Below, piece after piece: positions 1 through 30,487 of a DNA stretch of 30,487 bases (positions within the stretch are counted from its first letter, which is position 1; every line of letters begins with the position of its first letter). Below the pieces are notes generated by a model. That model was not told the origin of the DNA, searched no databases, and saw only the letters and a program-made list of their open reading frames with translations. Where the stretch lies: positions 1 to 30,487 of IMG/VR virus record IMGVR_UViG_3300037634_000844. One strand, given 5' to 3'. The stretch comes from a virus. Its lineage: Duplodnaviria; Caudoviricetes. Position numbers and translations under genes: made by a program.

Positions 1-1707
1 TGTTATGGAATATGCTACCTTAAAAACAGACGGTCTGGATTTTCCTTCATGGCATCATCAGAACTTGTTAATCAAGCAACCATATCCTCAGATAGCAGAT
101 ACGGGATTTTATCAAAGACTGGAGCTGATGCTAAAAAAATGTTCACAGATAAAGTTGTACCAATCTCGGTTAATTATCCATTCTTCTTTAAACCAATCCA
201 GGATGGTATGGATCGTCCTAAAACCGAACTGGCATACAGAGTCCCGGCATCTAAATTCACACGTAGAAAATTGGAAGCTAATGAACAACTTCCAGAACTA
301 GAAGGATTAGATACAACAATAGATTGGAAAAACACAGGGGACAATAGTTATGATGGGGAAAAGTTAAAAATCTTAGCTCATGATGAAAGTGGTAAGTGGG
401 AGAGACCAGATAATATATTAAACAACTGGAGAGTTACAAAAACCACATTAAGACTAGGTAGTAGAATAGTTGGGAAATGCATGATGGGATCTACAAGTAA
501 TGCTTTAGATAAAGGAGGAGCTAATTTTAAGAAATTATATGATGCATCAAACGTCACACAAAGAAATAGAAATGGACAAACAAGTTCGGGATTGTATTCT
601 TTATTCATACCTATGGAATGGTCCTACGAGGGATACCTCGATACTCATGGCATACCTGTGTTCGACACTCCAACAAAGCCAGTCCGAGGTATTGATGGAT
701 TTCCTATTGACATCGGAGTTATCGAGCACTGGGATAACGAAGCCGAGGGGTTAAAACAAGATCAAGACGGGTTAAACGAATTTTATAGGCAATTTCCTCG
801 TACTGAGAAACATGCTTTTAGAGATGAAACAAAGGAATCATTATTTAATTTAGTTAAACTCTATGAACAAATAGATTATAATGAAGAATTAAATAATAAA
901 GCAACTATAACTACAGGGAGTTTTCAATGGTGTAACGGATTAAAAGACACTAAAGTAGAATTTTATCCTAATCCTAACGGTAGATTTAAAATAAGCTGGG
1001 TACCTGATAAAGAAATCCAAAATAATATAATTCTGAAAAATGGAATTAAATATCCTGGCAACGATCACGTTGGAGCATTTGGTTGCGACAGTTATGATAT
1101 TAGTGGTACTGTTGATGGTAAAGGATCGAATGGATCGCTTCATGGATTAACTAAGTTTAGCATGGAAGATGCACCACCTAATCATTTCTTTTTAGAATAT
1201 ATAGCTAGACCACAAACCGCAGAAACGTTTTTTGAAGAAGTTTTAATGGCTTTAGTATTTTATGGAATGCCTTTGTTATGTGAGAATAATAAACCAAGAT
1301 TATTGTATTATTTGAAGCGAAGAGGTTATAGAGGATTTAGCATGAATAGACCAGATCGAGTATGGAACAAACTTTCTATTACAGAAAAAGAAGTAGGAGG
1401 AATACCTAATTCAAGTGAAGATATAAAACAAGCTCACGCGGCTGCTATTGAATCTTATATTGAAAACTATGTAGGAAGATTAAAAGAAACTTATGGAGAT
1501 ATGTATTTTCAAAGAACTTTAGAAGATTGGAGTAAATTTAATATAAATAATAGAACTAAACATGATGCAACTATAAGCTCAGGTTTAGCTTTAATGGCTT
1601 GTAATAAAAATAGGTATAGACCTATTCCAAAAAGAACAATGAAAACTATGGATTTAGGATTTAAAAAATATAATAATGAAGGTGAAATTTCTAAAATAAT
1701 ACGTTAA
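1..1707 (+). CDS. terL: Terminase large subunit (5'-truncated; the frame is open from base 1, so the Met at 49 is internal)
   Basis: Frame 1 reads CYGICYLKNRRSGFSFMASS from base 1 (Walker-A-type KxRRxGxS). It also has a Walker B LAHDESGKW, motif III-like MGSTS, and an RNase H-like nuclease domain with FGCDSYD, ENNK and HDATISSGLA. It lies directly upstream of the portal-like gene with a TAATG stop/start overlap. Confidence 0.95.
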   Translation, partial: CYGICYLKNRRSGFSFMASSELVNQATISSDSRYGILSKTGADAKKMFTDKVVPISVNYPFFFKPIQDGMDRPKTELAYRVPASKFTRRKLEANEQLPELEGLDTTIDWKNTGDNSYDGEKLKILAHDESGKWERPDNILNNWRVTKTTLRLGSRIVGKCMMGSTSNALDKGGANFKKLYDASNVTQRNRNGQTSSGLYSLFIPMEWSYEGYLDTHGIPVFDTPTKPVRGIDGFPIDIGVIEHWDNEAEGLKQDQDGLNEFYRQFPRTEKHAFRDETKESLFNLVKLYEQIDYNEELNNKATITTGSFQWCNGLKDTKVEFYPNPNGRFKISWVPDKEIQNNIILKNGIKYPGNDHVGAFGCDSYDISGTVDGKGSNGSLHGLTKFSMEDAPPNHFFLEYIARPQTAETFFEEVLMALVFYGMPLLCENNKPRLLYYLKRRGYRGFSMNRPDRVWNKLSITEKEVGGIPNSSEDIKQAHAAAIESYIENYVGRLKETYGDMYFQRTLEDWSKFNINNRTKHDATISSGLALMACNKNRYRPIPKRTMKTMDLGFKKYNNEGEISKIIR

Positions 1708-4118
1708 TGCAAATTTACACTAGCCCAAATGGCACATTTCCCGATCAGGTGGTACCTGATGCAGAAAAAGCAACTTTAGATTATGGTTATTCAGTAGGTA
1801 GAGCAATAGAAGGAGAATGGTTTAGAAATAATCAAGGCGCAGGATATAGATTCACAACTAACTATAATAATTTTCACAATCTAAGATTATATGCGAGAGG
1901 TGAACAATCAATTCAAAAATATAAAGATGAATTATCCATTAATGGAGATTTGTCATATCTTAATTTAGATTGGAAACCCGTACCTATTATATCTAAATTT
2001 GTAGATATAGTAGTTAATGGAATATCTCAACGTAGTTATGAAGTAAAAACTTTTGCTCAAGATCCTGAGTCAATGCAAAAGAGAACTAAATATGCTCAAA
2101 ACATTATAGATGATATTCAACAACAACAATATCAATTAGCAGTTCAAGAAGCTTTTGGAATAGATATATCTAAAGGTGAAAAAAATGAGAATACTCCAGA
2201 AACGATTGATGAGATAGGTATTCACATGCAGTTAAATTATAAACAATCAATTGAATTAGCTGAAGAAGAACTTATTGATCAAGTATTAGATAAAAATAAA
2301 TACCATTTACTTAGGAAAAGATTAAATTATGATTTAACTGTATTAGGTATAGGAGCTGTTAAAACTAACTTTAATAGATCAGAAGGTATTACTGTTGATT
2401 ATGTGAATCCAGCTAATTTAGTTTGGTCTTATACAGATGATCCTAATTTCCAAGATTTATGGTACGTTGGCGAAGTAAAAAATGTAAGTATTCCAGAACT
2501 TAAAAAGCAATTCCCTCATTTAACTCAAGCTGAAGTTGAAGAAATGGAAAAGTTTAAAGGGAATACAGCATATGAAAGAAATTGGAATGGTAGATATGAT
2601 GAAAATAGTGTACAAGTTTTATATTTTGAATGGAAAACTTATGCTAATCAAGTATTTAAAATAAAAGAAACTAATGTTGGTTTAGAAAAAGCGATTTTAA
2701 AAGAAGATACTTTTAATCCTCCAGAAACTGATAACTTTAAAAAAGCTTTTAGATCTATTGAAGTTCTATATTCAGGAGCTAAAATACTAGGTTATCCTAC
2801 TATGTTAAGTTGGGGTTTATCAGAGCATATGACTAGACCAGAAGCGGATACAGTTAAAGTTAATATGAATTATAATATTTGTGCTCCTCGATTATATAGA
2901 GGACGTATAGAATCTTTAGTAAGTAGAATTACTGGATTTGCAGATATGATTCAATTAACCCATCTAAAGTTACAGCAAGTGTTATCACGTATGGTACCTG
3001 ATGGAGTGTATTTAGACATGGATGGGTTAGCAGAAGTGGATTTAGGTAATGGTACTAATTATAATCCAGCTGAAGCTTTGAACATGTATTTTCAAACTGG
3101 TAGTATTGTTGGTAGAAGTTTAACTCAAGATGGAGATCCTAATAGAGGAAAAGTCCCCATTCAAGAACTTAATAGTTCTAATGGAATGGCTAAAATACAA
3201 TCTCTTATTCAAACTTATCAGTATTATTTACAAATGATAAGAGACGTAACCGGATTAAATGAAGCTAGAGATGGTAGTAATCCAGATAAAGATGCATTAG
3301 TAGGATTGCAAAAATTAGCAGCAGCACAATCTAATGTAGCTACACGCCATATATTGCAAGCAAGTTTATATTTAACATTAAAAACTTGTGAGAATATCTC
3401 TTTGCGAGTGGGAGATTCTTTAATGTTTCCTTTAACAAGAATTGCATTACAAAATAGTATTACTAATTACAATGTACAAACATTAGATGAATTATCTAAA
3501 TTAAATATTCATGACTTTGGGATATTCTTAGACTTAGAACCAGAAGAAGAAGAAAAAGCTGAATTAGAACAAAACATTCAAATAGCTTTAAAAACAGGTG
3601 GTATAGATTTAGAAGATGCTATAGATATAAGAAATATTAATAATCTTAAATTAGCTAATGAACTTCTAAAGAAAAGACGTAGACAGAAGCAAGCTAAAGA
3701 GCAAGAAATGCAACAAGCAAATATTCAAGCTCAAGCACAAGCAAACGCTGAAGCAGCTGAAAAAGCTGCATTGGCTGAACTACAAAAACAACAAGCATTA
3801 GCAGAAAGTCAACTTCAAATTGAACAAGGAAAATCTCAATTTGAGATTCAACGTATGCAAACTGAAGCAGAAATTAAAAAAGAATTAATGCAACAAGAGT
3901 TTGATTACAACATGCAATTAGCTCGAGTAAAAGTAGATTCGATAACCCAAAAAGAAAAAGAAATAGAAGATAGAAAAGATAACCGTACTAAAATGCAGGC
4001 AACGCAACAAAGTAAAATGATAGACCAAAGAAAAAACGATTTATTACCTACGGATTTTGAATCACAAGGTAATGATAATTTAGGTGGATTTGGATTAGAA
4101 CAATTCGCACCAAGATAA
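1707..4118 (+). CDS. Portal protein (crAss-like, 803 aa)
   Basis: Follows terL. Portal-like segments LDWKPVPIISKFVDIVVNG and IRDVTGLNEARDG, plus a long Q/E/K/A coiled-coil C-terminus like the barrel of podovirus portals. Confidence 0.88.
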   Translation: MQIYTSPNGTFPDQVVPDAEKATLDYGYSVGRAIEGEWFRNNQGAGYRFTTNYNNFHNLRLYARGEQSIQKYKDELSINGDLSYLNLDWKPVPIISKFVDIVVNGISQRSYEVKTFAQDPESMQKRTKYAQNIIDDIQQQQYQLAVQEAFGIDISKGEKNENTPETIDEIGIHMQLNYKQSIELAEEELIDQVLDKNKYHLLRKRLNYDLTVLGIGAVKTNFNRSEGITVDYVNPANLVWSYTDDPNFQDLWYVGEVKNVSIPELKKQFPHLTQAEVEEMEKFKGNTAYERNWNGRYDENSVQVLYFEWKTYANQVFKIKETNVGLEKAILKEDTFNPPETDNFKKAFRSIEVLYSGAKILGYPTMLSWGLSEHMTRPEADTVKVNMNYNICAPRLYRGRIESLVSRITGFADMIQLTHLKLQQVLSRMVPDGVYLDMDGLAEVDLGNGTNYNPAEALNMYFQTGSIVGRSLTQDGDPNRGKVPIQELNSSNGMAKIQSLIQTYQYYLQMIRDVTGLNEARDGSNPDKDALVGLQKLAAAQSNVATRHILQASLYLTLKTCENISLRVGDSLMFPLTRIALQNSITNYNVQTLDELSKLNIHDFGIFLDLEPEEEEKAELEQNIQIALKTGGIDLEDAIDIRNINNLKLANELLKKRRRQKQAKEQEMQQANIQAQAQANAEAAEKAALAELQKQQALAESQLQIEQGKSQFEIQRMQTEAEIKKELMQQEFDYNMQLARVKVDSITQKEKEIEDRKDNRTKMQATQQSKMIDQRKNDLLPTDFESQGNDNLGGFGLEQFAPR

Positions 4119-4127
4119 CTATTTATT

Positions 4128-4146
4128 AATTATTATATTATATTAT
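4128..4146 (+). promoter_or_regulatory. (TATTA)3 translation-initiation-region motif, copy 1
   Basis: AATTATTATATTATATTAT abuts and overlaps the scaffold ATG; an identical 19-mer occurs at 7318-7336. Confidence 0.5.
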
Positions 4147-5377
4147 GTCAGAAGTAAAAGAAGAAATTAAAGAAGCTCCAGATGGAACTTTAGAACAAGG
4201 AGAGTTTAAAGTTAAAAAGAAAAAACCCAAGAAACTCACTACTAAAAAAAGATCAACAACAAAAATAGATTTAAGTAAAAAACCAGAGTCTAAAAAAGAA
4301 GAAGAAAATGCCGTTCTTAAGCAAACAACAAAGGAAGATGTGTCACCGACTAGCGGAGAGAGCAAGGAAACAAGGGAAGAAACCAAAGTGGAACTGCAAG
4401 AAGTGGGAGGAACACACTCCGAAGAACAAACCACTTCCGTGGAGAATAAAGAAAAAGAAGAAGTAGTACTAGAAGAAGTTACAAAAGAAGAGGTAAAAGA
4501 AGATAAACCTATACTAGAACAACCTAGTACAAACACTCCAGTAAATGATCAAGAAAATTCTATTCCTGAAAGTGTACATAAGTTGTTAGACTTTATGGAA
4601 GATACAGGAGGAAATTTAGAAGATTTTGTAAGGTTAAGTAAAGATTATTCTAATGTAGATGAAAGTATTTTACTGAGAGAATATTATAAAAATATTAGAC
4701 CACATTTAGACAATGAAGAAGTAGACTTTATTTTAGAAGATACTTTCTCATGGGATGAAGACATGGACGATGAGCGAACTATAAGGAAGAAAAAGTTAGC
4801 TTATAAAGAAGAAATTGCGAAAGCCAAAAACTTTTTAGACGATCTAAAGGGTAAATACTACGAGGAAATCAAGTTGAGACCCGGAGTAACTCAAGAACAA
4901 CAAAAAGCTATGGATTTTTTCAATAGATATAACAAAGAACAAACCGCTGTCAAGCAACAACATGATACGTTTAAAAATACAACAAAAGATTATTTCGCTA
5001 ATGAATTTGAAGGTTTCAATTTTGATGTTGGTGAGAAGACTTTTAGGTATAAAGTAAACAATCCTAATGATGTTGCAGAAAGCCAATCTAATTTAACAAA
5101 CTTTGTTAAGAAGTTCTTAGATGAAAAAGGTAATGTTAAAGACTATAAGGGTTATCACAAAGCGATTTACGCTGCGAGAAATGCTGATACTATAGCTAAT
5201 CATTTTTACGAGCAAGGCAAAGCCGACGCTGTAAAAAATATGATGGCAAAATCTAAAAATATAAATAACGATCCAAGACCAAATAGTGGTGGAGATGTGT
5301 TTATTAATGGATTAAGAGTAAAAGCAGTTAGTGGAGCAAATAGTTCTAAGTTAAAAATTAAAACACGAAATAAATAA
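4145..5377 (+). CDS. Putative capsid scaffolding protein (acidic, 410 aa)
   Basis: Lies between portal and capsid. E/K-rich, probably disordered N-terminus, helical C-terminus (HFYEQGKADAVK) and a basic tail. Function is inferred from synteny. Confidence 0.7.
   Translation: MSEVKEEIKEAPDGTLEQGEFKVKKKKPKKLTTKKRSTTKIDLSKKPESKKEEENAVLKQTTKEDVSPTSGESKETREETKVELQEVGGTHSEEQTTSVENKEKEEVVLEEVTKEEVKEDKPILEQPSTNTPVNDQENSIPESVHKLLDFMEDTGGNLEDFVRLSKDYSNVDESILLREYYKNIRPHLDNEEVDFILEDTFSWDEDMDDERTIRKKKLAYKEEIAKAKNFLDDLKGKYYEEIKLRPGVTQEQQKAMDFFNRYNKEQTAVKQQHDTFKNTTKDYFANEFEGFNFDVGEKTFRYKVNNPNDVAESQSNLTNFVKKFLDEKGNVKDYKGYHKAIYAARNADTIANHFYEQGKADAVKNMMAKSKNINNDPRPNSGGDVFINGLRVKAVSGANSSKLKIKTRNK
4308..4466 (+). 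CDS. Overprinted small basic protein (52 aa) in the +1 frame of the scaffold gene
   Basis: ATG at 4308 to TAG at 4464-4466 gives MPFLSKQQRKMCHRLAERARKQGKKPKWNCKKWEEHTPKNKPLPWRIKKKKK. The upstream context is A-rich with A at -3. GC is 50/100 at 4341-4440 in an otherwise AT-rich gene. It resembles small phage proteins I recall starting MPFKSxxQR...W..HTP....LP (unverified). Confidence 0.65.
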   Translation: MPFLSKQQRKMCHRLAERARKQGKKPKWNCKKWEEHTPKNKPLPWRIKKKKK

Positions 5378-5395
5378 AACTTAAAACGATAAATT

Positions 5396-6874
5396 ATGGC
5401 GTTTGTAGCAAATGCGGCTTTTCCCGCATCAATTACTCCAATGCCGACTCAAGTTGCAGTTCAAGGAAATTATATTGATTTTCATGATGCAGCTTTTTCG
5501 ACTTGGACACAACAATACCTACCTGAGCTTTATGAGCAAGAGGTAGAAAGATATGGTAATAGGACCTTATCTGGATTTTTAAAAATGGTCGGGGCTGAAA
5601 TGCCTATGACATCTGATCAAGTAATTTGGTCGGAACAAAATAGATTACATGTTGCTTATGCTAATTGTGCTGTAGCTGCAGGTGGTCACGTTTTTCCAGA
5701 CTTTAGAGTAACAATCACTCCAGGAGCTGCAGAACCTACTTCAGCAATAAGAGATGGTAATACTATTCTAATTTCGGATAACGCAACTGGATTAACTACA
5801 TTAAAAGCTTTAGTCACTAATAGATTAGATGCTGGTACTGATGGTTATACTATAGAATGTCACGCTTATACAGGAGCAGCTTTAGCAGCAGCTCTAACAG
5901 CTGGTACATGTAGTATATATGTATATGGTTCAGAATTTCCTAAAGGAAGTAACGGAATGGAAGGGGCTATTGAACCAGGTTTAACTACTTATTCTAACAA
6001 TCCAATTATTTTAAAAGATAATTATGAATTAAGTGGTTCTGATGCTGCTCAAATTGGTTGGATAGAAGTTGCAACTGAAGATGGAACATCAGGATATCTA
6101 TGGTATCTAAAAGCTGAATCTGAAACAAGATTGAGATTTGAAGATTATATGGAAATGTCAATGGTTGAAGGTGAAATTAATGCTAATGCAGCTAATTTCC
6201 CAATCGCTACTTTCCCACCAGCTACTGTAGCTAATCAAGCAATTTTAGGTACGCAAGGTCTTTTTGCAGCTTTAGAAGCAAGAGGAAATGTATATTCTGG
6301 TTTTGCTGGTGCTGCTGCTCCAGGTTCTGGTGCAATGGGAGATTTTGATGTAATTCTTAATCAATTAGACAAGCAAGGTGCAATAGAAGAAAATATGTTA
6401 TTTTTATCAAGACAAACTGCTCTTGATTTTGATGATATGATAGCTGCTATGAATGGTAACTATGCTTCTTCAGCTGCTGCTTCTTATGGATTATTTGAAA
6501 ATGAAGCTGAAATGGCGTTGAATTTTGGATTTTCAGGATTTAGAAGAGGTTCTTATGACTTCTACAAAACTGACTGGAAATATCTTAATGATGCAACTAC
6601 TAGAGGTATGTCTTCTGCAATTGATGGTGTATTAGTTCCTGCTGGAACTTCAACAGTATACGATCAAATGTTAGGATCAAATATCCGTAGACCATTCTTA
6701 CACGTTAGATATCGAGCTTCAGAAACAGAGGATAGAAGATTTAAATCTTGGATCACTGGTTCTGTTGGAGGTGCTTACACTTCTGATCTTGATACTATGA
6801 GAGTTAATTTCTTGTCTGAGAGATGTTTAGTAACTCAAGCTGCTAATAACTTCGTGTTATTCCAAGGAGCTTAA
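5396..6874 (+). CDS. Major capsid protein (492 aa, HK97 fold expected)
   Basis: Position after the scaffold and suitable size. Segments QQYLPELYEQEVERYGNRT, LNFGFSGFRRGSYDFYKTDWKYLND and FLSERCLVTQAANNF resemble capsids of crAss-related Bacteroidota phages. Tandem TAATAA stop. Confidence 0.9.
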   Translation: MAFVANAAFPASITPMPTQVAVQGNYIDFHDAAFSTWTQQYLPELYEQEVERYGNRTLSGFLKMVGAEMPMTSDQVIWSEQNRLHVAYANCAVAAGGHVFPDFRVTITPGAAEPTSAIRDGNTILISDNATGLTTLKALVTNRLDAGTDGYTIECHAYTGAALAAALTAGTCSIYVYGSEFPKGSNGMEGAIEPGLTTYSNNPIILKDNYELSGSDAAQIGWIEVATEDGTSGYLWYLKAESETRLRFEDYMEMSMVEGEINANAANFPIATFPPATVANQAILGTQGLFAALEARGNVYSGFAGAAAPGSGAMGDFDVILNQLDKQGAIEENMLFLSRQTALDFDDMIAAMNGNYASSAAASYGLFENEAEMALNFGFSGFRRGSYDFYKTDWKYLNDATTRGMSSAIDGVLVPAGTSTVYDQMLGSNIRRPFLHVRYRASETEDRRFKSWITGSVGGAYTSDLDTMRVNFLSERCLVTQAANNFVLFQGA

Positions 6875-19519: not shown

Positions 19520-22500
19520 ATGAGTGAATTTCCAGAAGATCCACGTGAAGACCCTTTTGAAGCGTTTAGTTTCTCAGTAGATACTAGTGATCCATTTGAA
19601 ATGTTTGGTAGAAATGTTCAATTAACTACACAAGAGACTGTCACTGAACAACCTGAGCAAACTACAGATTATTTCGGAGGTATGGGGTTCACAGATGAAG
19701 TGGTTACTGATGATGTAACTGTAGATACAGAAGTAGAAGAGTGGGAACCTATATATTCTAGTGATTACTACGAATCTCTTCCTATGATGAACCAAGAGAG
19801 AGCTGCATATGAACAATGGAAATTAAAACCAGATAGAGAAGCATTACCAGAAGAAATAGAAGAAGCTAAAACAGGAGTTAGTGAGGTAAAACCTTTAACG
19901 ATAAAAGATCAATTAGGTTTAAATTTTAATGTACCGTTAGAAAAAACTCAAATACAACGACAAGAAGATTTTATTGAAGGATTAAGAGATGCTACTACTA
20001 ATAAGATATTTGTAACACCAAAAGAAACAGGAGTAGAAGTAGATGAATTAACGCTTAAATATGGAGATATTTTTACCGAGCGTTCTCCAGAAAAACATCC
20101 GCATGACGCTTTTGAGCAAGTAGGAGATTGGATAGGTAATACAATTATGACTTTACTTGATGTTCCGAGAACATTAGCTGGTCAAGAAGCTGCTGCCGAT
20201 TACAGTTGGTTTGGTTATGATCCAAAAGAATTAACTGTAAGTGACAAACAATTAATACAAGGGGCAGCTCAAACAGATGCTGATTTGATAAATAAAGAAT
20301 TAAATCAAATAAATAGTCCTATTAGATATCAATGGAATAATGGAAAATTACAACCATATATAGATTATGATTCTAAAGAAATAACTAAAAATGATGTTTT
20401 AAAAGCATTTGAAATTGTAAAAGAAAAACAAAAAAAAGCTGATGAAGGAAGATTAACAAATGATGAACTATCAGTAATTAAATTTGAAAATCAATATCAA
20501 GAGGCTTTAAAAACAGGAACTCCTACTGAAATAAAAGAAGCAAAAAACAAATGGATAGAAGAATGGAAGAAATTAGGTGGAGTTAAAAGAATTTTTAGTG
20601 AAGATGGATCTTTTATTTCAAAAAAAGATGCAACACCAGCAGATGAAAAAGCTAATTCTAATTTGGATGATGAAGCTTCTCAACAATGGGGACTAAGTGA
20701 TGAACAATCAATGTTGAATGCTAAACGCGCATTAGCTAATAAATTAATATATTTATCTAAAGAAATTTCTAAAGATCCTAAAGTAATAGGAAGAGGAATG
20801 AATTGGTTAGATGCTATGAGAGAAGGAGGATTTGGTTCTACATTTGATATAAGTGGTTATTTAGAAAAGGATAATTATATAGCATTAGAAGATAATTTAA
20901 AAATAATAAATCAAGTTGGAAATGAAGGAATTATTCTCCCTGAATTAAAATATTTGCCTGGAGGAAGTATTTTAACTAATCAATTTAATAATTTACTTAA
21001 ACAATACAATGTTGTAACTCGAGCAATGCAATTAAATATGGATCCAACTACGAATATTGGATCAGGATTTGTAGAAGATATAAAGGGATTTGGAGCTCAA
21101 ATAGCTGAAAAATTTAGTCCTACAGATGTAGAAACAGCACGTGAATTAGGAAGAGAATTTGTTAGTTTTACTCAAGATGAAGTAGGAATTTCTATCACTC
21201 AAGATTTAGCTAATAAAGTTGATTTTGCTTGGGATACCGAAACTGAACGTTATGTTTTAGATAAAGATATTAGTGAACAAACGTTAGAAACTATAGTAGA
21301 AATAGGACAAGTTATGGCAGAGTTTGCTGTAGCTAGAAAAGTTATAGGAAAGAAAAATATAAAGAAGTTAGGTAATTTTGTTAGAGAATCTGCTGCCGGT
21401 AAACCACGTATTATAAGAGCTGCTGCTACTGTAAGTGCGAGTATAATAGAAGAAGCTGCTGCTATACAAGCACGAAATGTATTAATAGCACCTATCACAG
21501 GTGGAGAAGATATGAGCTTAACTTGGGCAGTTGGAGCAGGAGCTATGGGATCTGTGGCTAAATATTTTAGTCCTGCAGGAGTTACAAGTATATGGACTAC
21601 GGGAAACAAAACTGTAAATAGATTAATTACTGCTATTGGTGGTTCTCAAACTGCTAATTTATTAGCTAAACAATTAATTCAACCTGCTATAGGTACGGGA
21701 GTAATGATCGCAGGTGAGATAACAGAAAATATCCTTACGACTGATAAGGGAATGAGAGAAATATGGGAAGAAGCTAGTGATTGGGATAAATTGGCTAGTA
21801 CTTGGGCAACATTATTTGCTCTTCAAAATTCTAAAGCACCTTTAAATATAGTAAGAGAACCTTATAGAGCTGTTGAAGCTGATATATTAGCATTAGGAAA
21901 GAAAACTAGATTTACTCAAAAAGCTGCTAAAGCTTTAGGTTTAGAATCTAACTACATGGATAAAAATGAAAAAGGTGATTATATTCTTACAGAAGACAAA
22001 ATTAATAAACAATTTAAAGAAAAAAGAAAAGAAGTTATAGATTCAGAACTATCTAAAGATGAGAAGTTTGAAAAACTTAGAGAACTTACAGCTGCACGAA
22101 GAAGCATGATAGAACATCGTCAATATTTAGATATTAAAAACACTATAAAAGCTACTGAGGGAGGTAAACAAATATGGGCTGATCAGTATGTTGAAAGTAT
22201 GAATTTAGCTTATGGAAGAGAATTGACAGCAGAGAATATTGAAGGATTAGCAAATACTCCTAGTACTCAACTTACTAGATTATTAGTTAGAGATCCGAAT
22301 AATAAGTTATCTAAACCAGATCAATCTGCTTTAGCTAATAGAATAATGGCGTATAGAGAATTAGCAGCAGATTTAAGTATGGAAGCTAACTTAACAGTAG
22401 CATCACAAGGAGGGTTAAGAGGAAAAGCACGTATAAATTATTTTAAAGAAAGATTAAAACAATTAAATGCCGAACGCGATTTATTAAATGCAACTGAAGC

Positions 22501-25500
22501 TTTAAAAGATAAAAAAATAACTCAATCTATTTATGACGAGCAAATTAGTGGACTTGAAAAAACTATTGAAGATTCTAATAAAAAGATTGAAAGTATAACT
22601 GATACATATACTAAAGAATTAAAAGAATCAAAGAAGTTTGAAAAGATTTCTAAACCCTTAATAGAAAGAGCTAAAGAAGCAGGTTTTAAAATAATAGAAG
22701 ATAAAACATTAGAAGGTGAAGCAGAGATTGGTGGAGGTGTATTTAGATATAATCCTAAAAAAGCTCCAGAATTCTTTACATTAGGAGTACATGAAGTAGG
22801 TCATCCAGTTGTTAATAGAATGCTTAAAGGAAAGACTCAAGCAGAAAAAGATTCCTTTGTAGAAGAGTTCAAAAAGATATTACCAGAGAAAACTTATCGT
22901 CTTATAGAAGAAAGACTATTAGGAAGACAAAATGTAAAAGATTATAAAGAAAATCCAAATACAGTAGAATGGATGAATGTATTTTTAGATATTACAGGTA
23001 GTGGAGCTTTAAAGTACGAAGGTAATTTTTTTGGTAAAGTAAAAGATTTTCTTAATAAATATAAAAAAGGTAAAGACTATAGTTTAGATTTAAACTTTGA
23101 AAATCCAAAAGAAGTATATGAAAACCTAAAAGCATTTGCTGAAGCTGCTGGTAAAGGAAAAGCTGGAGTTGGTGAAAAAGGAGAAATGCTCGTAGAAGCT
23201 TTGAAAAAAGCTCCACAAATGGAAGGAACTCAAAAGTCTGTTACTATAGATTTAGAAAATAAAAAGAATCAAGATACTTTAAATGAACAAGTTGGAGAAA
23301 GAACTGAAGAAGGTTATTATACTATGCCTAAAAAAGAATGGTTAGGAAGTAGAGCTCATAAAATTGCAAAAAATCTAATTGATGGTGGATCATTTGATTT
23401 ATTAATTGGTAAAAAAATATTTCCAGGTAAAAAAATATACACAGAAACTAGAGAAAATATTTTAGAAGATAGTAGAGCAGAGTTAAAAAGACATTTAGAA
23501 AATTTTGACCCTACATTAAATAAAAATTTATTTGGATATCTTAATTCGTATGTAGGTGCAAAAGTTGGTACAGTTACAGGAAGAGCTAAAAAAACAGTTC
23601 CTACTGTATCTAGAGATATTCAAGTAGAAGGAAGAAAAATGCCTGAACCTGAATCTAAAGATCTTGATCCATCTGAGTTAGCAGATATTGTTTTAGCAAA
23701 AGAAAGAAAAGCTAAAGCAGAAAAAGATAAACCTAAAGAAACTGTTGCTTCTAAAGTAGGAATGCCTAAAGTTATAGTTGATAAAATAAAAGGTGAAACA
23801 TCTAGTGAAGAATATATTGAAGAAGCTGCAGAAAAAGTAGATTATAGAAAGTTGCCCGAAATTTCAACTCCTCCTGGTCCTAATCAAACCATTCCTCCCT
23901 TTCTTAGTAAATTAAAAGCTCAAATAGCTACATCAAGAAAATATAAAGAAGAAGTAGCTCAATCTATGGGTACTAGAAAAGATTACATAGATTATCTAGA
24001 TAAAAACTTTGAAAAAATAGTTAAAAATTTACCACCCTCATATTTTTCTGGATTAATAGAAAGAAAAATCACCAGTGGAGTTAAAAAAGGATTAACTTTA
24101 AAGCAAGCTATAGATGCCGTGATCTTACCTAAAAATATGATTCAAAAAGATATTGGTCAAGGTTATACTTCAAACTGGCAAGGTAAAAAAACTGTAGGAA
24201 CTAAAGCTGCGAAAACAGGTATTACTTCAGGTTTAAAAAGAATAAGATTAAATCCAAATTTTGATTTTAAAAATAAAGCTAATATTGAAGCATTTAAAAA
24301 AGCTTTTAAATCTCAAGGAAGAAAAGAAGGATTAGCAGGTCAAATAAGTGCTAAAGGAGTTGTTGATTATTTACAAAAGAACTTAGGTACTGAAAGTAAA
24401 ATAGATAAACAACTAAAAGACAGTTATGATCTTAAAGGAAGAGAATTACCTAAAGATTATGCTAAACAATTTAGAGAACAAGTTGCTAAATCTGAAGTTC
24501 AAAGATCTGCAACAGAAGAGAAAATAGAACAAGAAAAGTTAAAGGAAATAGCAAATGCTAGATTACTTAAAGAAATAGAAAAGGGGTATTTTCTAGGAGA
24601 TATGAAAGGAATGGCTAATGCCATTAAATCATTAGTTAAAGAAAATCCAGGATTAAATTTAATAATACCTAAAGAAATAAGCAAAGAAGGTATTGTTAGA
24701 GATCCTGAAGGACAAGAAATGTTAATTAATTTTACTACTAATATTTTACCTCGATATTATGGTAAAAATGTTTTACTGAGCTCAGTATGGGCAGGAACTG
24801 CATCTGGCAAAGGCATGTGGATGGATACTCGGACATTAGCAGAAGTTAGAAAACTATTTTTATCTCATGAAGATAGAGTATCACAAGAAATTCAAGAAAC
24901 TATAAACCCAGGAATGGCTTCATCAGGATTAGATGTTATGAAGACTAGTCCTTTCACAAGTAATGGTAGTAAAAAGAAATTTATAGATAAAGTAAATAAA
25001 AGTTATAAAGGATTAGATTTATTCATAGATCAATCATTTAAAATGTTAAAAGAAAACCCAGATCAATTAAGTGGATTTCTTGCTATGATGAAAAATGCAT
25101 CAGTTACTAGTAGTCATTTTTGGAGGAACTTTTCACAAGTAATAGGTAAACACGTGAACTGGGCGGATAAGGTGATGATGGATCCTAAGAAAAAAGGGAA
25201 AGGGGTAGGAGAACATGCTTTAGTTCAAAATCAAGCCGGTGAATTTATGACTAAAGCTATATTGGAATCTATAGCTAAGAAAAATCGTAATATACTTAAT
25301 ACTGCTAAAGAATTATTAAGTGAAAATTACTTTCAAATATTAATTAGTCATGGGAGTGATAATAAACTAACTGAAATAGGTTTACAATCTAGTATGCCTA
25401 AAGGATTTTGGGAAAGTTGGAATAAAGCTTTAGAAACAGGAAACGTGAAAGAAGCTTGGTCAGTATGGTCTAGATATTTTAATAAAGAAATAAATAAAAT

Positions 25501-28500
25501 TAAAGGAGCAGATGGAGAGTTAGGATTTAATCCTAATAATATAATGTTACTTAATAGAAAAACTGGAGAAATTGAAAGTTTAGCAGATACATTAGGAATA
25601 GGTGAAAAACATTTTGGTAAAGATGTTTTAAATCCTGAGATTATAGCTAAACAACAAGAACTTATTGGAGAATGGTCACGAAGAAATCCAAATTATAATA
25701 CTATAACAAAATTAAGAGAACATTTAGCTATAGATTTAGACATGCTTAATGCTAAAAGAAATGCTACTTTAAACTCTAAAAAAGAATTAGAAAAAATAGA
25801 TAACATATTTAAAGTATCAGAAAAAGCTCCTAATGAAATATTAGTACAAAAATCTAATACTTTTGATAAAGCTTTAGCAGAAGGTAGAAAACTCAAAAAA
25901 GAAATTAAAAAAGCTAGAGTATTTGATTTTGACGATACGATTGCTAAAAGTAAGAGTAAAGTATTATATGAAACTATAGATGGAGAAAAAGGTAAATTAA
26001 CACCTGAAGAATTTGCTGCTCGTGGAGAAGAATTAAAAGAAAAAGGAGTTACTTTTGATTTCTCTGAATTCAATAAAGTTGTGGAAGGAAAGAAAGGACC
26101 TTTATTTGAATTATTTAAAAGAATGAAAGAAGCTGCAGGAGATAGAGATATGTTTATTCTTACAGCAAGAAGTGGAGCTGCTGCTCCTGCTATTAAAGAG
26201 TTTTTAAATAGAATGGGTGTTGAAATTCCATTAGATCATATTACAGGATTAGGTGATAGTTCTCCTTTAGCTAAATCAGATTGGGTTGTAGGAAAAGCAG
26301 CAGAAGGTTATAATGATTTTTATTTTGCTGATGATCATTTACCTAATGTAGAAGCAGTTAAAAAAGCATTAAGTCCTTTAGAGGTAAAAGCAAAAGTTCA
26401 ACAAGCGAAAGATGCTGTTCAATTTGAAATAGATAAATTACCAGGAGAAAGTGGAACCCAATTTAGTATGACAACTAAACGTGATCTTGATTGGAAAGAA
26501 AGTACTAAAATCACAGATGAAGGTCGTGCAATGTCTAGTATGAAAGCTAAGTTTGAAGTGAAAGGCGTTCCGTATGAAATATACTTAGATTTACTAAGTG
26601 ACAAAAAAAGAGGATCATGGGATTTAGGATTTACTAATTTAAAAGATGGGAAAAGAAGTCAAGCTATAACGGGGGATGGTAATGCGTCGCAAGTTTTAAG
26701 TATAGTATCAAATGCAGTTTTTGATTTAGCTAAAAGGAAAGATGTTAATGTTTTAAATTTTTCATCTAAAGAAAAAAGTAGAACGAGACTTTATAAAACT
26801 TTAACTAATTTGTGGGCTGATAAATTAGGTTGGAATCAAAGTTTTAATTCACAACACAACATATTTCACATTGGGAAACCAGGGTTTGAAATAGGATTAA
26901 AATATAAAAAGACACCTCAAGAAACAACAGTTGAAATAGAAAAATCTAAAGATAAATTTAGTAAACAATCTAAACCAGTCAAAAAAGTATTAAATGTAAT
27001 AGATATAAAAGGAAAAGTTCAACAAGCTATAATGCAAAAGAGTAATACTCTTAATGAAGGATTTAATAAGATAATAGAAGAAAGTGCAGGAGTAGATAGA
27101 TTTAAAGTATTTTCTGATGTTAAAGCTCAAATACGAGGAGAAAAAGCTAGAAGACAAAGATTCTTTATTCCTCCATCAGCAGAAGATTTTTTAGGGTTAT
27201 TATATGCTACATTAGGAAAAGGTAAACAAGGAGAAAATCATTTAAAGTTTTATGAAGATAATTTACTTACTCCATATAGTAGAGCAATGGAAAATTTATC
27301 TACTGATAGAGTTAATTTAATGAGTGACTTTAAAGATCTTAAAAACAAATTAGATGTTCCTAAAGATCTTAAGAAAACTACTAAATCAGGATTTACTCAT
27401 GAGCAAGCAGTTAGAGTATATTTATGGAATACAACAGGTAAAGAAATACCTGGTTTATCAAAAGCTGATTTTAAAGAATTAAATGATATTGTAGAAAAGA
27501 ATTTTAGATTAAAATCTTTTGCTGATCAAATTCTTTCTATAACAAAAGGGGATGGATATTCTACTCCTAAAAAAGAATGGTCTGTAGGAACTATAACAAC
27601 TGATTTAATTGATATTCTTAACACTACTAAGCGAAGTAAATACTTAGAACCTTGGAAACAAAATGTAGATGTAATCTTTTCTAAAGAAAACCTCAACAAA
27701 CTAGAAGCGGTTTATGGTGAAAAGTATAGAGAAGCAATGGAGAATATGCTTACTAGAATGAAATCTGGTAGCAATAGAACTGCAGGAGGTAATAAACTTA
27801 GTAATCAAGTATTAGATTATATTAATAATTCTACTGGTGCTATAATGTTTTTTAATACTAGATCAGCAGTACTTCAAACCATCTCAGCAGCTAACTTTAT
27901 TAATTGGAGTTTTAATAATCCTTATAGAGCTGGTAAAGCATTTGCTAATCAACCTCAATATTGGAAAGATTTTACTGAATTAATGAATTCGGATTATTTG
28001 AAAGATAGAAGACAAGGATTAAAATTAAATATAAGTGAATCTGAGATATCTAATGCTGCAAAAACTTCTAAAAATAAAGCTAAAGCTGTATTAAATTATA
28101 TACTTGAAAAAGGATATTTACCTACTAAATTTGCAGATAGTTTTGCTATAGCTTCTGGTGGTGCTACGTTTTATAGAAATAGGATAATAGATCTTATGAA
28201 AAACGAAGGTAAAACTGAAGTTGAAGCTAAGAAAATAGCAATGGAAGAATTTAGAAAGAATGCGGAAATTTCTCAACAATCTTCTAATCCATCTAAAATA
28301 TCTCAACAACAATCTAGTGACTTAGGAAGAGTTGTATTACAATTCGTCAATACTCCTATGCAGTATGCTAGAATACAAAAGCGAGCTATTCAAGATATTG
28401 CTAATGGTAGAGGAGATATGAAAACTAATGCAGGTAAAGTAGCTTATTATATGTTTTTGCAAAATATGATATTCAATGCATTGCAACAAGGATTATTTGC

Positions 28501-29326
28501 TTTAGGTTTTGGTGATGATAAGATTGATGATAAAGAAGAAGAGAAATTATACGAAGGTTTAAATGGAATGTTAGATTCTAGTTTAAGAGGTTTAGGTATG
28601 GCAGGGGTTACTGCTTCAGTATTGAAAAACTTAGGATTAGATATTTATGACAGGTCTAAAAGAGGACGACCAGAATATTCAGATGCTTGGATTAAATTAT
28701 TAGAATTTTCTCCTGCTATTAAAAGTAAACTTGGTAAATTAAAATCTGCAGCATGGCCATTTGATTCTAAGAAAAGAAGAGCAGAAGTATTTGAAAAAGG
28801 TTTTAGTTTAGATAATCCTGCTTATGAATCTATGGCTAAGGTTATAACTGCTACAACTAATCTTCCAGTTGATAGATTGTTTAGTAAAATTAATAATCTT
28901 AAAAATGCTTTCGCTGATGAAGCTGAAGCTTGGCAATCTGTTGCTATGGTTTTAGGATGGCCTGAGTGGCAACTAAAAACTACTAAACAAGAAGTTGCAG
29001 AAGAGAAAAAAGAATTAAAAGAAGATCCTTCGGGTTATAATGCGTGGCAACAAAAGTCTATTTTAAAACAATATGGATATAATGAAAAAGAAATAAAGAA
29101 ACTTAAAAATGAAGAATCGAGAGTAAAAGAAATATTAAAATCTCAAAAAGAAAATAACAATCAATATATACCTTTAAAAATAGATAAACCATGGGACGTT
29201 AAAATGAAAGAAGAAGGAGCTACTAAAGAAGAGATAAAGAAAAAAAGAGAAGAAAAAAAAGGAGGATATAAATCTACAAAAGGAGGTTTTAAAGATTCTT
29301 CATTTAAAACAACAACATTTAAGTAG
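19520..29326 (+). CDS. Giant multidomain (polyvalent-type) ejected virion protein, 3268 aa
   Basis: Uninterrupted 9.8-kb ORF and third gene of the ejection cluster. Contains HEVGH (22790), a sigma-region-2-like segment (about 23460-23570), an EH/MP/RY module (about 25210-25480), HAD motifs (25925-26335), an SRTRLY module (26777) and a helical, hydrophobic C-terminal region. Confidence 0.85.
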   Translation: MSEFPEDPREDPFEAFSFSVDTSDPFEMFGRNVQLTTQETVTEQPEQTTDYFGGMGFTDEVVTDDVTVDTEVEEWEPIYSSDYYESLPMMNQERAAYEQWKLKPDREALPEEIEEAKTGVSEVKPLTIKDQLGLNFNVPLEKTQIQRQEDFIEGLRDATTNKIFVTPKETGVEVDELTLKYGDIFTERSPEKHPHDAFEQVGDWIGNTIMTLLDVPRTLAGQEAAADYSWFGYDPKELTVSDKQLIQGAAQTDADLINKELNQINSPIRYQWNNGKLQPYIDYDSKEITKNDVLKAFEIVKEKQKKADEGRLTNDELSVIKFENQYQEALKTGTPTEIKEAKNKWIEEWKKLGGVKRIFSEDGSFISKKDATPADEKANSNLDDEASQQWGLSDEQSMLNAKRALANKLIYLSKEISKDPKVIGRGMNWLDAMREGGFGSTFDISGYLEKDNYIALEDNLKIINQVGNEGIILPELKYLPGGSILTNQFNNLLKQYNVVTRAMQLNMDPTTNIGSGFVEDIKGFGAQIAEKFSPTDVETARELGREFVSFTQDEVGISITQDLANKVDFAWDTETERYVLDKDISEQTLETIVEIGQVMAEFAVARKVIGKKNIKKLGNFVRESAAGKPRIIRAAATVSASIIEEAAAIQARNVLIAPITGGEDMSLTWAVGAGAMGSVAKYFSPAGVTSIWTTGNKTVNRLITAIGGSQTANLLAKQLIQPAIGTGVMIAGEITENILTTDKGMREIWEEASDWDKLASTWATLFALQNSKAPLNIVREPYRAVEADILALGKKTRFTQKAAKALGLESNYMDKNEKGDYILTEDKINKQFKEKRKEVIDSELSKDEKFEKLRELTAARRSMIEHRQYLDIKNTIKATEGGKQIWADQYVESMNLAYGRELTAENIEGLANTPSTQLTRLLVRDPNNKLSKPDQSALANRIMAYRELAADLSMEANLTVASQGGLRGKARINYFKERLKQLNAERDLLNATEALKDKKITQSIYDEQISGLEKTIEDSNKKIESITDTYTKELKESKKFEKISKPLIERAKEAGFKIIEDKTLEGEAEIGGGVFRYNPKKAPEFFTLGVHEVGHPVVNRMLKGKTQAEKDSFVEEFKKILPEKTYRLIEERLLGRQNVKDYKENPNTVEWMNVFLDITGSGALKYEGNFFGKVKDFLNKYKKGKDYSLDLNFENPKEVYENLKAFAEAAGKGKAGVGEKGEMLVEALKKAPQMEGTQKSVTIDLENKKNQDTLNEQVGERTEEGYYTMPKKEWLGSRAHKIAKNLIDGGSFDLLIGKKIFPGKKIYTETRENILEDSRAELKRHLENFDPTLNKNLFGYLNSYVGAKVGTVTGRAKKTVPTVSRDIQVEGRKMPEPESKDLDPSELADIVLAKERKAKAEKDKPKETVASKVGMPKVIVDKIKGETSSEEYIEEAAEKVDYRKLPEISTPPGPNQTIPPFLSKLKAQIATSRKYKEEVAQSMGTRKDYIDYLDKNFEKIVKNLPPSYFSGLIERKITSGVKKGLTLKQAIDAVILPKNMIQKDIGQGYTSNWQGKKTVGTKAAKTGITSGLKRIRLNPNFDFKNKANIEAFKKAFKSQGRKEGLAGQISAKGVVDYLQKNLGTESKIDKQLKDSYDLKGRELPKDYAKQFREQVAKSEVQRSATEEKIEQEKLKEIANARLLKEIEKGYFLGDMKGMANAIKSLVKENPGLNLIIPKEISKEGIVRDPEGQEMLINFTTNILPRYYGKNVLLSSVWAGTASGKGMWMDTRTLAEVRKLFLSHEDRVSQEIQETINPGMASSGLDVMKTSPFTSNGSKKKFIDKVNKSYKGLDLFIDQSFKMLKENPDQLSGFLAMMKNASVTSSHFWRNFSQVIGKHVNWADKVMMDPKKKGKGVGEHALVQNQAGEFMTKAILESIAKKNRNILNTAKELLSENYFQILISHGSDNKLTEIGLQSSMPKGFWESWNKALETGNVKEAWSVWSRYFNKEINKIKGADGELGFNPNNIMLLNRKTGEIESLADTLGIGEKHFGKDVLNPEIIAKQQELIGEWSRRNPNYNTITKLREHLAIDLDMLNAKRNATLNSKKELEKIDNIFKVSEKAPNEILVQKSNTFDKALAEGRKLKKEIKKARVFDFDDTIAKSKSKVLYETIDGEKGKLTPEEFAARGEELKEKGVTFDFSEFNKVVEGKKGPLFELFKRMKEAAGDRDMFILTARSGAAAPAIKEFLNRMGVEIPLDHITGLGDSSPLAKSDWVVGKAAEGYNDFYFADDHLPNVEAVKKALSPLEVKAKVQQAKDAVQFEIDKLPGESGTQFSMTTKRDLDWKESTKITDEGRAMSSMKAKFEVKGVPYEIYLDLLSDKKRGSWDLGFTNLKDGKRSQAITGDGNASQVLSIVSNAVFDLAKRKDVNVLNFSSKEKSRTRLYKTLTNLWADKLGWNQSFNSQHNIFHIGKPGFEIGLKYKKTPQETTVEIEKSKDKFSKQSKPVKKVLNVIDIKGKVQQAIMQKSNTLNEGFNKIIEESAGVDRFKVFSDVKAQIRGEKARRQRFFIPPSAEDFLGLLYATLGKGKQGENHLKFYEDNLLTPYSRAMENLSTDRVNLMSDFKDLKNKLDVPKDLKKTTKSGFTHEQAVRVYLWNTTGKEIPGLSKADFKELNDIVEKNFRLKSFADQILSITKGDGYSTPKKEWSVGTITTDLIDILNTTKRSKYLEPWKQNVDVIFSKENLNKLEAVYGEKYREAMENMLTRMKSGSNRTAGGNKLSNQVLDYINNSTGAIMFFNTRSAVLQTISAANFINWSFNNPYRAGKAFANQPQYWKDFTELMNSDYLKDRRQGLKLNISESEISNAAKTSKNKAKAVLNYILEKGYLPTKFADSFAIASGGATFYRNRIIDLMKNEGKTEVEAKKIAMEEFRKNAEISQQSSNPSKISQQQSSDLGRVVLQFVNTPMQYARIQKRAIQDIANGRGDMKTNAGKVAYYMFLQNMIFNALQQGLFALGFGDDKIDDKEEEKLYEGLNGMLDSSLRGLGMAGVTASVLKNLGLDIYDRSKRGRPEYSDAWIKLLEFSPAIKSKLGKLKSAAWPFDSKKRRAEVFEKGFSLDNPAYESMAKVITATTNLPVDRLFSKINNLKNAFADEAEAWQSVAMVLGWPEWQLKTTKQEVAEEKKELKEDPSGYNAWQQKSILKQYGYNEKEIKKLKNEESRVKEILKSQKENNNQYIPLKIDKPWDVKMKEEGATKEEIKKKREEKKGGYKSTKGGFKDSSFKTTTFK
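22650..23150 (+). other. Zincin-like metallopeptidase domain within the giant protein
   Basis: Beta strands (AEIGGGVFRYNP), then TLGVHEVGH (HExxH at 22790-22804), a downstream Glu in NTVEW as candidate third ligand, and an FFGKVKDFL helix. Boundaries approximate. Confidence 0.75.
25900..26410 (+). other. HAD-superfamily phosphatase domain within the giant protein
   Basis: All four HAD motifs in order: I VFDFDDTI (D at 25925), II ILTARS (T at 26162), III K in PLAKSDW, IV YFADD (26330-26335). Confidence 0.88.
26392..27027 (+). repeat. Exact 15-bp direct repeat AAAAGTTCAACAAGC (26392-26406 and 27013-27027) inside a duplicated 17-aa segment
   Basis: VKKALSPLEVKAKVQQA (26357-26407) versus VKKVLNVIDIKGKVQQA (26978-27028): 10/17 identical, 621 bp (207 codons) apart and in frame. 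Confidence 0.85.
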
Positions 29327-29335
29327 TATAAAACA

Positions 29336-29704
29336 ATGAAAATTAACGAAAACACGGAGTTAAAATTTGATTTAAAAACTATTATAAGTTTAATAGTATT
29401 AACTACTACATTTGTGGGTATGTATTACACGTTGCAATCTGATATAGAAGAAGCTAAAGAAATGCCACCTGCAGTTATAGATCGTATAGAATATGATCTT
29501 AAACAGGAGTTTTTCACAGAACATATTAATGATTTAGAAGACGAAGTAGATGAATTATACGAATGGTATTGGGATTTGGATGCAGAACTTCATCATAACT
29601 CTACACATGTTAGAAAGAGTTTAGAGGAAATAAAGAATGCACCTAAACAGAAGGCACAGACAATAATAATAAAAGAAAATAATAATAATAAAAAAAGGAG
29701 GTAA
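29336..29704 (+). CDS. Small single-pass membrane protein with coiled coil (122 aa); lysis role possible but unsupported
   Basis: Hydrophobic helix IISLIVLTTTFVGMYY, then an acidic coiled coil (INDLEDEVDELYE) and a basic C-terminus. Confidence 0.6.
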   Translation: MKINENTELKFDLKTIISLIVLTTTFVGMYYTLQSDIEEAKEMPPAVIDRIEYDLKQEFFTEHINDLEDEVDELYEWYWDLDAELHHNSTHVRKSLEEIKNAPKQKAQTIIIKENNNNKKRR

Positions 29705-29706
29705 CG

Positions 29707-30487
29707 ATGAGAAAGATAATATTAGGATTTATATTAAGTTTATTTGTAGGGATTTATTTCCCACAATGTACTCATACGTTTACTGGTTACGATTCATACG
29801 GAGATGGATGGAATGGAGCAAGTGCAACCATAACAGTAAATGGAATGATAGTAGGACAATGTGATTTACTATCAGGATCTTCAGAAACAATTCAATTTCC
29901 AGCCACTGATGGTGATTTAATTAAATTAGATTGGATTTCAGGTTCTTGGGATTCAGAAATATCCTGGGATGTAAAAGATGGGGGAGGAAGTATTATCTCC
30001 ATGGGTATATGGGGAACAAGTGCAGTTGGTAATGCTGCATGTCCTTTAGCTACGCCATGTGCTGCTTTAGATTACTCACAAGACTTTGAAACTGGAACCA
30101 CCTCTATGGTGGCTACTACAAATAGTGGATCTAATATTGCAGTAGACGCAACAGGAGCTAATGCAAGTCTTTATGGTGCGCATATGCAAGGAAATACATC
30201 TTCTTATTGGTACAATCCTTATAATAGTGGACCAGATGCTTTTTCGTCTTCACCTAATCATATAGCTCAAATTAGTAGAGAGATATGTGCAGCTACAAAA
30301 CCTAACGTAACTTTAACTTTTGATAAGAAACAAACTTATACTTATAATGTAACTTACTCTTGGTTTAGAGTTACAATAAATGGAATACCTATAGCGGATA
30401 TTAATGGGGAAACATATTTTAATGGATCTAATAATACTTGGAAAACAATGACTTATGATTTGTCTTTGTATGCAGGAAGTAATTTTA
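29707..30487 (+). CDS. Secreted Bacteroidota-type beta-sandwich protein resembling T9SS cargo/adhesin (3'-truncated, at least 260 aa; not in the ORF track)
   Basis: Open from ATG 29707 to the window end: MRKIILGFILSLFVGIYFP-QCTHTFTGYDSYGDGWNGASATITVNG...GSWDSEISWDVKDGGG...CP...C..LDYSQDFE...WKTMTYDLSLYAGSNF. Signal peptide followed by Gln, a DSYGDGWNG motif and a cleaved-adhesin-like YDLSxYAG. Confidence 0.8.
   Translation, partial: MRKIILGFILSLFVGIYFPQCTHTFTGYDSYGDGWNGASATITVNGMIVGQCDLLSGSSETIQFPATDGDLIKLDWISGSWDSEISWDVKDGGGSIISMGIWGTSAVGNAACPLATPCAALDYSQDFETGTTSMVATTNSGSNIAVDATGANASLYGAHMQGNTSSYWYNPYNSGPDAFSSSPNHIAQISREICAATKPNVTLTFDKKQTYTYNVTYSWFRVTINGIPIADINGETYFNGSNNTWKTMTYDLSLYAGSNF

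Follow-up and report, generated by a model that had tools for sequence, protein, structure and literature searches.

A conserved gene for a small basic peptide nested in the +1 frame of a scaffold-like phage head gene

In the 30,487-nucleotide stretch of tailed-phage DNA analyzed here in its entirety (hereafter, the window), a 410-amino acid (aa) gene of the head module contains, in its +1 frame, an open reading frame (ORF) for a 52-aa basic peptide (positions 4308-4466), which is very probably a conserved second gene translated from its own internal start. The dual-coding stretch is real, and both of its frames are under selection. To our knowledge, nested genes of phages have been described as fixed pairs, in a handful of model phages; the present one is frequent in an abundant group of phages, has been missed by annotation and relocates between unrelated hosts. 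The unusual aspect is the movement of a single small gene among unrelated host genes, together with its use as a leader. The system offers a natural, replicated test of how overlaps originate, here probably through the capture of an old gene rather than the birth of a new one, and of how the frame is chosen. Because Elemovirus, a relative of the window phage, and its host, Flavobacterium sp. BAL314, are in culture, translation and function are directly testable.

The nested gene and its genomic setting

The features of the window that are relevant to this analysis are the following:
49..1707, + strand, terminase large subunit gene (PHROG 6681, E 1e-119; the match begins at profile position 194 and the 5' end is probably cut)
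1707..4118, + strand, portal protein gene (PHROG 6547, E 1e-140)
4145..5377, + strand, host gene of 410 aa, scaffold-like by position, between the portal and capsid genes
4283..4307, + strand, likely initiation region of the nested gene, A-rich and weakly structured, with A at -3 (minimum free energy -1.5 kcal/mol)
4308..4466, + strand, nested gene in the +1 frame of the 410-aa gene, encoding a 52-aa basic protein of the MPFKS family, two-cysteine subtype
5396..6874, + strand, likely major capsid protein gene (PHROG 13704, virion structural protein, E 3e-88)
19520..29326, + strand, giant 3268-aa gene, without a copy of the basic peptide

The order terminase, portal, 410-aa gene and likely capsid gene is that of a phage head module, and the closest named relatives of the window, Elemovirus first, then phi38:1 and Gundel_1, infect Flavobacteriia. 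The gene at 5396..6874 likely encodes the major capsid protein, as judged by its size and position. The 410-aa gene occupies the place between portal and capsid that is expected of a head scaffolding protein, and is likely a head-assembly (scaffold) gene on the basis of gene position; the label "scaffold" used in the earlier note is a positional one, and the protein has no match in PHROG, Pfam, NCBIfam or PDB. Its homologues in Elemovirus and phi38:1 (gp92) are labelled "structural protein". The protein consists of a basic N-terminus, an acidic linker (codons 55-108) in which the nested gene is located, and a conserved C-terminal domain of ~270 aa.

The nested frame is a complete ORF within a longer ORF on the same strand, and its translation over host codons 55-108 is as originally quoted, with 20 Lys and Arg residues (15 K and 5 R) and two cysteines (Cys12 and Cys30). 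The peptide has a net charge of +17 and a pI of 11, that is, the size and high positive charge of a small basic DNA-binding virion protein, and is predicted to form two helices (residues 6-21 and 30-35) followed by a Lys tail (mean pLDDT 81.9). The host segment underneath is indeed acidic (14 D/E against 7 K/R), and the reported rise in GC content was reproduced, with 0.50 at 4341-4440 compared with 0.32 in the window and 0.30 in the rest of the host gene. This is the only + strand ORF in the window that begins with MP[FLYW], as well as the sole match to the family profile there. When the host protein was randomly recoded with synonymous codons 20,000 times, the 52-codon openness of the +1 frame was retained in 1.06% of the recodings, and an ATG at the nested start arose in 85%, so that the ATG alone is uninformative. 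An antisense ORF of 132 codons spans the overlap (4138-4536, - strand); it is likely a shadow because antisense frames are open in only some relatives.

No Shine-Dalgarno sequence was found in the 25 nucleotides upstream of the nested ATG (4283..4307). In Bacteroidota, as described in PMC6847099, initiation involves A at -3 and low structure instead of Shine-Dalgarno pairing. The start context of the nested gene, considered good in the earlier note, is A-rich and has A at -3, but the same stretch encodes Lys and Glu residues of the host, which partly force its A-richness. Among 101 starts nested in scaffold-like genes, 92% have A at -3, compared with 38% of 1,699 other +1 ATGs, and the mean folding energy is -1.7 against -5.4 kcal/mol, with host Lys and Glu codons contributing to both contrasts. 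For the 37 distinct copies nested in large hosts, a strong Shine-Dalgarno sequence (-6.4 to -12.6 kcal/mol) precedes nine, one of which (L177) has an ambiguous host, whereas equally strong sites occur at 0-4 of the 12-77 other +1 ATGs of the same large host gene. The remaining 28, which are mostly AT-rich, A-rich and of the Bacteroidota type, have no strong Shine-Dalgarno sequence. An initiation signal of its own is thus clear in the nine Shine-Dalgarno-bearing relatives, and is partly confounded by host codons in the Bacteroidota-type copies, including that of the window. Elsewhere in the window, a GGAGG Shine-Dalgarno-like site (29690-29707) precedes the last gene, unlike the other starts.

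Conservation and selection in relatives of the host gene

In the search with the host gene, the best 80 of 582 confirmed loci were kept, one of which is the window's own sequence. Among the 79 homologues that remain, the +1 ORF is intact in 56, so that the frame, whose openness the earlier note suggested checking, stays open in most relatives; one more (L009) carries the ORF with a host stop at the ORF end, in another (L076) the peptide is fused to the scaffold domain, and 21 have no intact ORF with an ATG. The nested gene is, accordingly, dispensable. In L022 (about 3065-3190), the frame is open but ACG replaces ATG, and in L062 and L071, a decayed remnant of the peptide is present and the host linker is retained. 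In L076 (2806-3849), the peptide continues in frame into the scaffold domain, and a stop terminates the host N-terminus; this differs from L053 by one frame change and is probably a sequence error. By a strict motif, the nested ORF is found in 30 of 36 host clusters at 90% identity, including the cluster of the window. The nested peptides of the relatives are 38-54 aa long, start at host codon 37-69 and fall into several subtypes that are 26-64% identical to the window peptide. No peptide match was found in phi38:1 or Gundel_1.

The selection analysis rests on loci chosen for carrying the nested ORF: 124 complete hosts with the ORF were reduced to 101 below 97% identity, from which 33 disjoint pairs were formed. 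Per-frame comparison, as suggested earlier, gave a clear signal, with a synonymous difference in the host frame of 0.057 in the overlap and 0.184 outside. The ratio is 0.31 (bootstrap 0.22-0.42), the value is lower in the overlap in 31 of the 33 pairs, and the dip is confined to the overlap. Host third positions differ by 0.097 in the overlap compared with 0.21-0.22 in the flanks and core, and host first positions, which are the wobble sites of the peptide frame, are most variable in the overlap (0.169 in 32 pairs, one pair having been dropped for lack of the core motif). Read in the peptide frame, synonymous and non-synonymous codon changes number 182 and 187, compared with 83 and 408, and 62 and 273, in the two flanks, as expected of purifying selection on a second, nested coding frame. 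The host frame is constrained as well: the peptide uses AAG for Lys in 546 of the 717 cases in which AAG yields Glu or Asp in the host, whereas the AAG share of Lys codons is 28% within host cores and 49% for AT-rich free copies of the peptide gene. This conservation, together with the suppression at synonymous sites in relatives, is stronger evidence than the test for chance openness. The presence of a GCC codon in 101 of 101 loci was not used as evidence, given that the loci were chosen by the motif and the argument would be circular.

No second nested gene was found downstream in the window, and 10 of 101 relatives have unrelated ORFs of at least 20 codons without a synonymous dip. A +1 ORF that recurs near host codon 250-273 was taken as a shadow because the dip there is only mild (0.125-0.18 vs 0.05).

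The peptide family and the origin of the overlap

A search of a 5.8-billion set with the single sequence returned no candidate, and a profile search of the same set returned 1,797; the family comprises 2,872 clusters at 50% identity. Its members are arranged in four ways in the genomes: as stand-alone genes, in the +1 frame of a scaffold-like gene, in the +1 frame of a giant gene, or as an N-terminal leader of longer, unrelated proteins. Among the best 80 of 84 loci found with profile A1, 65 are nested in scaffold-like genes, 13 in giant genes and two are N-terminal to long proteins. The best 80 of 483 loci found with profile A2 include 44 free copies, 15 in giant and nine in scaffold-like genes, six N-terminal, three ambiguous and three unclassified, and 79 loci from GTDB include 52 free copies, nine in giant and four in scaffold-like genes, two N-terminal, one ambiguous and 11 unclassified; the host-selected, A1, A2 and GTDB sets overlap slightly. 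The likeness to free-standing small phage proteins pointed out in the earlier note is thus borne out. A literature search, with subscription journals mostly outside its coverage, returned no description of the family or of such nesting.

Free copies range over cyanophage, actinophage and jumbo-phage records and bacterial and archaeal metagenome-assembled genomes (MAGs), and those of cyanophages S-CBS2 (L325:5001-5111) and P-RSP2 (L327:5001-5123) are unannotated. In Acidobacteriaceae MAGs (L287, L293, L297, L298, L301, L306 and others), a free subtype is found among ordinary chromosomal genes, in one case (L297) adjoining SRAP, and a copy in a gammaproteobacterial MAG (L285) adjoins DNA ligase; the Acidobacteriaceae-type subtype may serve the cell by protecting DNA. 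In cultured Elemovirus, the peptide is encoded in the +1 frame in the middle of the gene for a 3,667-aa "structural protein", and the scaffold homologue lacks it; in 68 Elemovirus records, the nested gene lies unannotated under a single "structural protein" CDS, as anticipated in the earlier note that gene callers would miss it. A Manatee Spring phage also has the peptide nested in the +1 frame of a giant gene.

The giant hosts form several groups without a BLAST link to each other, and some of the 20 scanned carry LPD23, LPD38, ART-PolyVal or DarB-like domains; such large polyvalent proteins are hosts of the nested gene, not its relatives. The 3268-aa gene of the window is likely their positional counterpart, an equivalence of position only, given that no BLAST link to the giant hosts was found. 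A stretch of that protein (residues 2126-2306) resembles polynucleotide kinases or HAD proteins (PHROG 415, E 1.7e-7). Each of 12 records searched has a single peptide match, and L089 has two copies in one giant gene (3326 and 4001), of which the first is truncated to 25 codons. A scaffold homologue is present in five giant-type records, and in four of them it lacks the peptide. No copy was found elsewhere in five scaffold-only fragments, which are 40-77% complete and were searched without a positive control. Nesting in the terminase gene (L177, L178) is ambiguous because the true start of that gene may lie downstream.

The leader form is common: among the best 150 proteins, 144 are new and 78 have at least 100 aa, of which 74 begin with the module. 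The tails behind it fall into 67 unlinked groups, and nine of the 75 scanned have a Pfam match.

The frame of nesting is constant, with none of 318 loci showing nesting in the +2 frame of a host of at least 300 codons. Avoidance of stop codons was rejected as the cause, given that, of 109 non-nested copies, 50 have an open +2 frame, which would read as R/K/L-rich, and 18 are open in the frame that nesting uses.

The earlier note described the gene as overprinted. A gene born de novo in this manner would be narrower in distribution than its host frame and would have no free homologues, whereas the nested frame has them in abundance in viral and GTDB loci. Because the peptide family has a far wider distribution than the host linker, which is limited to one phage group, the linker is the likelier newcomer, and we consider a peptide-first origin, with the acidic linker as the newer frame, to be likely. 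Plausible precursors are found in L277 (portal, free peptide, 294-aa gene, capsid-like gene) and L292 (terminase, free peptide, portal), and in L202, L233 and L240, free copies directly follow members of the same giant-gene family. In eight chosen sequences of one subtype, the DNA likeness between giant-hosted and scaffold-hosted copies sets in at the ATG, fades close to the stop and does not extend into the flanks. On the host tree, the peptide subtype requires 21 changes, compared with a minimum of four, and well-supported branches force at least four changes for absence of the peptide.

Under this scenario, a free-standing late gene would have been captured as a frame-compatible cassette of ~120-150 nucleotides in low-complexity linkers of virion genes, where the other frame reads as an acidic spacer, and would later have moved between scaffold-like and giant polyvalent genes, with repeated swap or loss; as a guess, the movement might involve recombination in low-complexity A-rich linkers. 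If so, the cassette would be a gene that travels hidden inside other genes. The opposite course, true overprinting of the peptide inside a virion gene and its later release, appears unlikely. It would fit the two-cysteine branch (21 rows, SH-aLRT 97), which contains only nested copies in the sampled tree, and the invariable +1 nesting despite the more frequent openness of the other frame could reflect a single nested ancestor. Against it, free and leader forms are known from many more lineages, both viral and cellular, the nearest kin of several nested copies are free copies of the same subtype, the host linker is not conserved in the scaffold homologues of Elemovirus or phi38:1, and a single clade of all nested copies is weakly rejected (p-AU 0.018; 68 of 243 cores, 39 columns).

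Embedded same-strand genes are well known in lambda (Rz1 in Rz) and phiX174 (E in D, a scaffolding gene). In these pairs, as here, the +1 frame of a lysis or morphogenesis gene harbours a whole second gene that has a start of its own. Unlike them, the present gene is not part of a fixed pair: it also occurs free-standing and as a leader, changes hosts and is likely the older frame, whereas E is regarded as the newer one. No lipoprotein or membrane features are evident in the peptide sequence.

Possible functions of the peptide

We tentatively favor the explanation that the two-helix protein, a predicted nucleic-acid binder, would enter the head together with the genome, and that the N-terminal module of unrelated proteins would act as an anchor bringing cargo to DNA or to the head. 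That similar peptides are conserved in viruses so unrelated suggests a universal target, of which nucleic acid is the simplest. Every clear nested host is a virion-module gene, and 14 of 43 non-nested viral loci have an identifiable terminase, portal, tail-fibre or giant-gene neighbour. Points against packaging are the low fraction of such neighbours, the many soil-bacterial copies amid cellular genes and the lack of the gene in some relatives. Small basic virion proteins such as phiX174 J, and the internal proteins of T4, which carry a capsid targeting sequence, resemble the peptide in size, charge, late-operon position and N-terminal leader use, but have no sequence or fold match to it. The DNA-condensing or capsid-internal role proposed in the earlier note is plausible, and the support from distant relatives is weak and mixed. 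If the module indeed loads cargo into heads, this would explain how many unrelated proteins reach virions. A possible, although speculative, generalization is that the ~40-aa module might be a universal virion-loading or DNA-anchoring tag in tailed phages, possibly also in giant viruses, and in Bacteroidota-type phages a mobile dual-coding +1 cassette hopping between unrelated virion-gene linkers.

Two distant relatives bear on packaging. Patience gp10 (HHalign probability 50.6; 12.7 bits) is expressed and listed as a virion protein in Table 1 and Table S1 of PMC4324244, where the spectra given are one in particles, four early and two late; no fully tryptic peptide of 7-35 aa is predicted for it. 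A term search of the capsid structure paper on Patience (PMC11965321) returned no mention of gp10. The record of 201phi2-1 gp383, for which four tryptic peptides are predicted, has no virion flag, whereas its neighbour gp382 is flagged. One tryptic peptide of 7-35 aa is predicted for the Elemovirus copy and two for that of the window.

The gp10 spectra and the missing virion flag of gp383 would also fit a real gene whose product acts inside the cell without being packaged, for example, by binding rRNA or host or phage DNA in late infection, a reading that we consider somewhat unlikely. The spectra of gp10 tabulated in PMC4324244 are commoner at 30 min than in particles, many copies in soil-bacterial MAGs lie amid ordinary cellular genes, two of them beside a DNA ligase or SRAP gene, and high conservation over unrelated viruses would fit any universal target. 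However, the confinement of clear nested copies to virion-module genes argues against it, and use as a leader on diverse tails is easier to reconcile with targeting than with ribosome binding. Among 36 members, none matched an ArfA or ribosomal-protein family at E up to 1; neither Pfam nor NCBIfam gave an ArfA match, and the KGKGS-type motif of ArfA is absent from the alignment, so that an ArfA-like rescue factor was rejected.

An unlikely alternative to packaging with nucleic acid is that the module serves as a signal for capsid targeting by attaching to the capsid, portal or scaffold protein of the head, the stand-alone form cementing the shell from inside; the capsid targeting sequence of T4 would be a parallel. 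The strictly N-terminal placement in 74 of the 78 long proteins agrees with this, as do the terminase or portal neighbours in six of 43 viral loci and four MAG proviruses, and the "structural protein" of Asteriusvirus A4_79 begins with a divergent module (12.5 bits, a weak match). The relatives are nevertheless too diverse to make a single capsid-protein partner likely: viruses that infect unrelated hosts and differ greatly in their capsids share near-identical modules, and a protein partner is unlikely to permit this.

It is very unlikely that the act of translating the internal ORF matters (through coupling, mRNA structure or a frameshift fusion of peptide and scaffold) rather than the peptide. 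The in-frame arrangement in L076 and the A-rich runs that end the nested ORF would fit, but residue-level conservation is common to nested and free-standing genes, and L076 is one of 79 loci, explained by the frame change noted above. The notion that the nested ORF is no gene but simply reflects a conserved host motif, compatible with the ready appearance of the ATG and with the absence or decay of the ORF in some relatives, is largely refuted by the threefold suppression of host synonymous sites, which a host motif cannot fix, the greater variability of host residues in the overlap than in the core, the free-standing homologues and the Shine-Dalgarno sites preceding nested copies in phages that use them.

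From comparison with known families, the peptide family appears to be a distant relative of PHROG 1375 (function unknown), to which nine of 36 members match (best E 4.9e-5), although not the window peptide itself. Common to both are F-x-S-K-x-Q, a helix, a Trp and a basic tail; Barnyard gp9 scores 27 bits on the peptide-family profile, and the gene lies next to that for the portal in both Barnyard and Patience. The two proteins, Barnyard gp9 and Patience gp10, differ in being free-standing with an N-terminal extension. For DUF3008 (PF11450), look-alikes in the ESM Atlas (0.90, with 37% of the cluster carrying the family, and 0.87) are a lead only, and membership was rejected because no Pfam match was obtained for the window peptide, the 36 nested or the 16 mostly free peptides; the literature search, within the coverage given above, returned no paper naming DUF3008. 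The divergent, longer modules of Asteriusvirus A4_79 (L340:1501-2355) and 201phi2-1 gp383 (L342:2127-2390, - strand) may bridge to this family.

Further comparisons gave the following outcomes. Pfam Choline_sulf_C was not adopted as the family: it matched 13 of 36 members, with a best E of 1.2e-4, yet one score, 20.9 bits, lies below the curated cut-off of 27 bits. One PDB sequence search matched repeated designed propellers, at 3-4 bits per stretch, and another gave no match. Weak matches appeared in RVTF4, Mozy and Caulobacter (E 2-10), and that in RVTF4 is in frame with its own gene and failed the family profile. A fold search over 48,161 chains yielded generic helical hairpins (best Z 3.5), which are uninformative. 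BFVD gave no match at E 0.001 or better, and its look-alikes, all weaker than this, include Harvfovirus and Terrestrivirus proteins, 201phi2-1 and Barnyard gp9. P0122, which has no Pfam match, carries behind the module a stretch rich in Lys and Ala, together with a GPRGG-type motif of the kind seen in basic adaptor domains of giant viruses.
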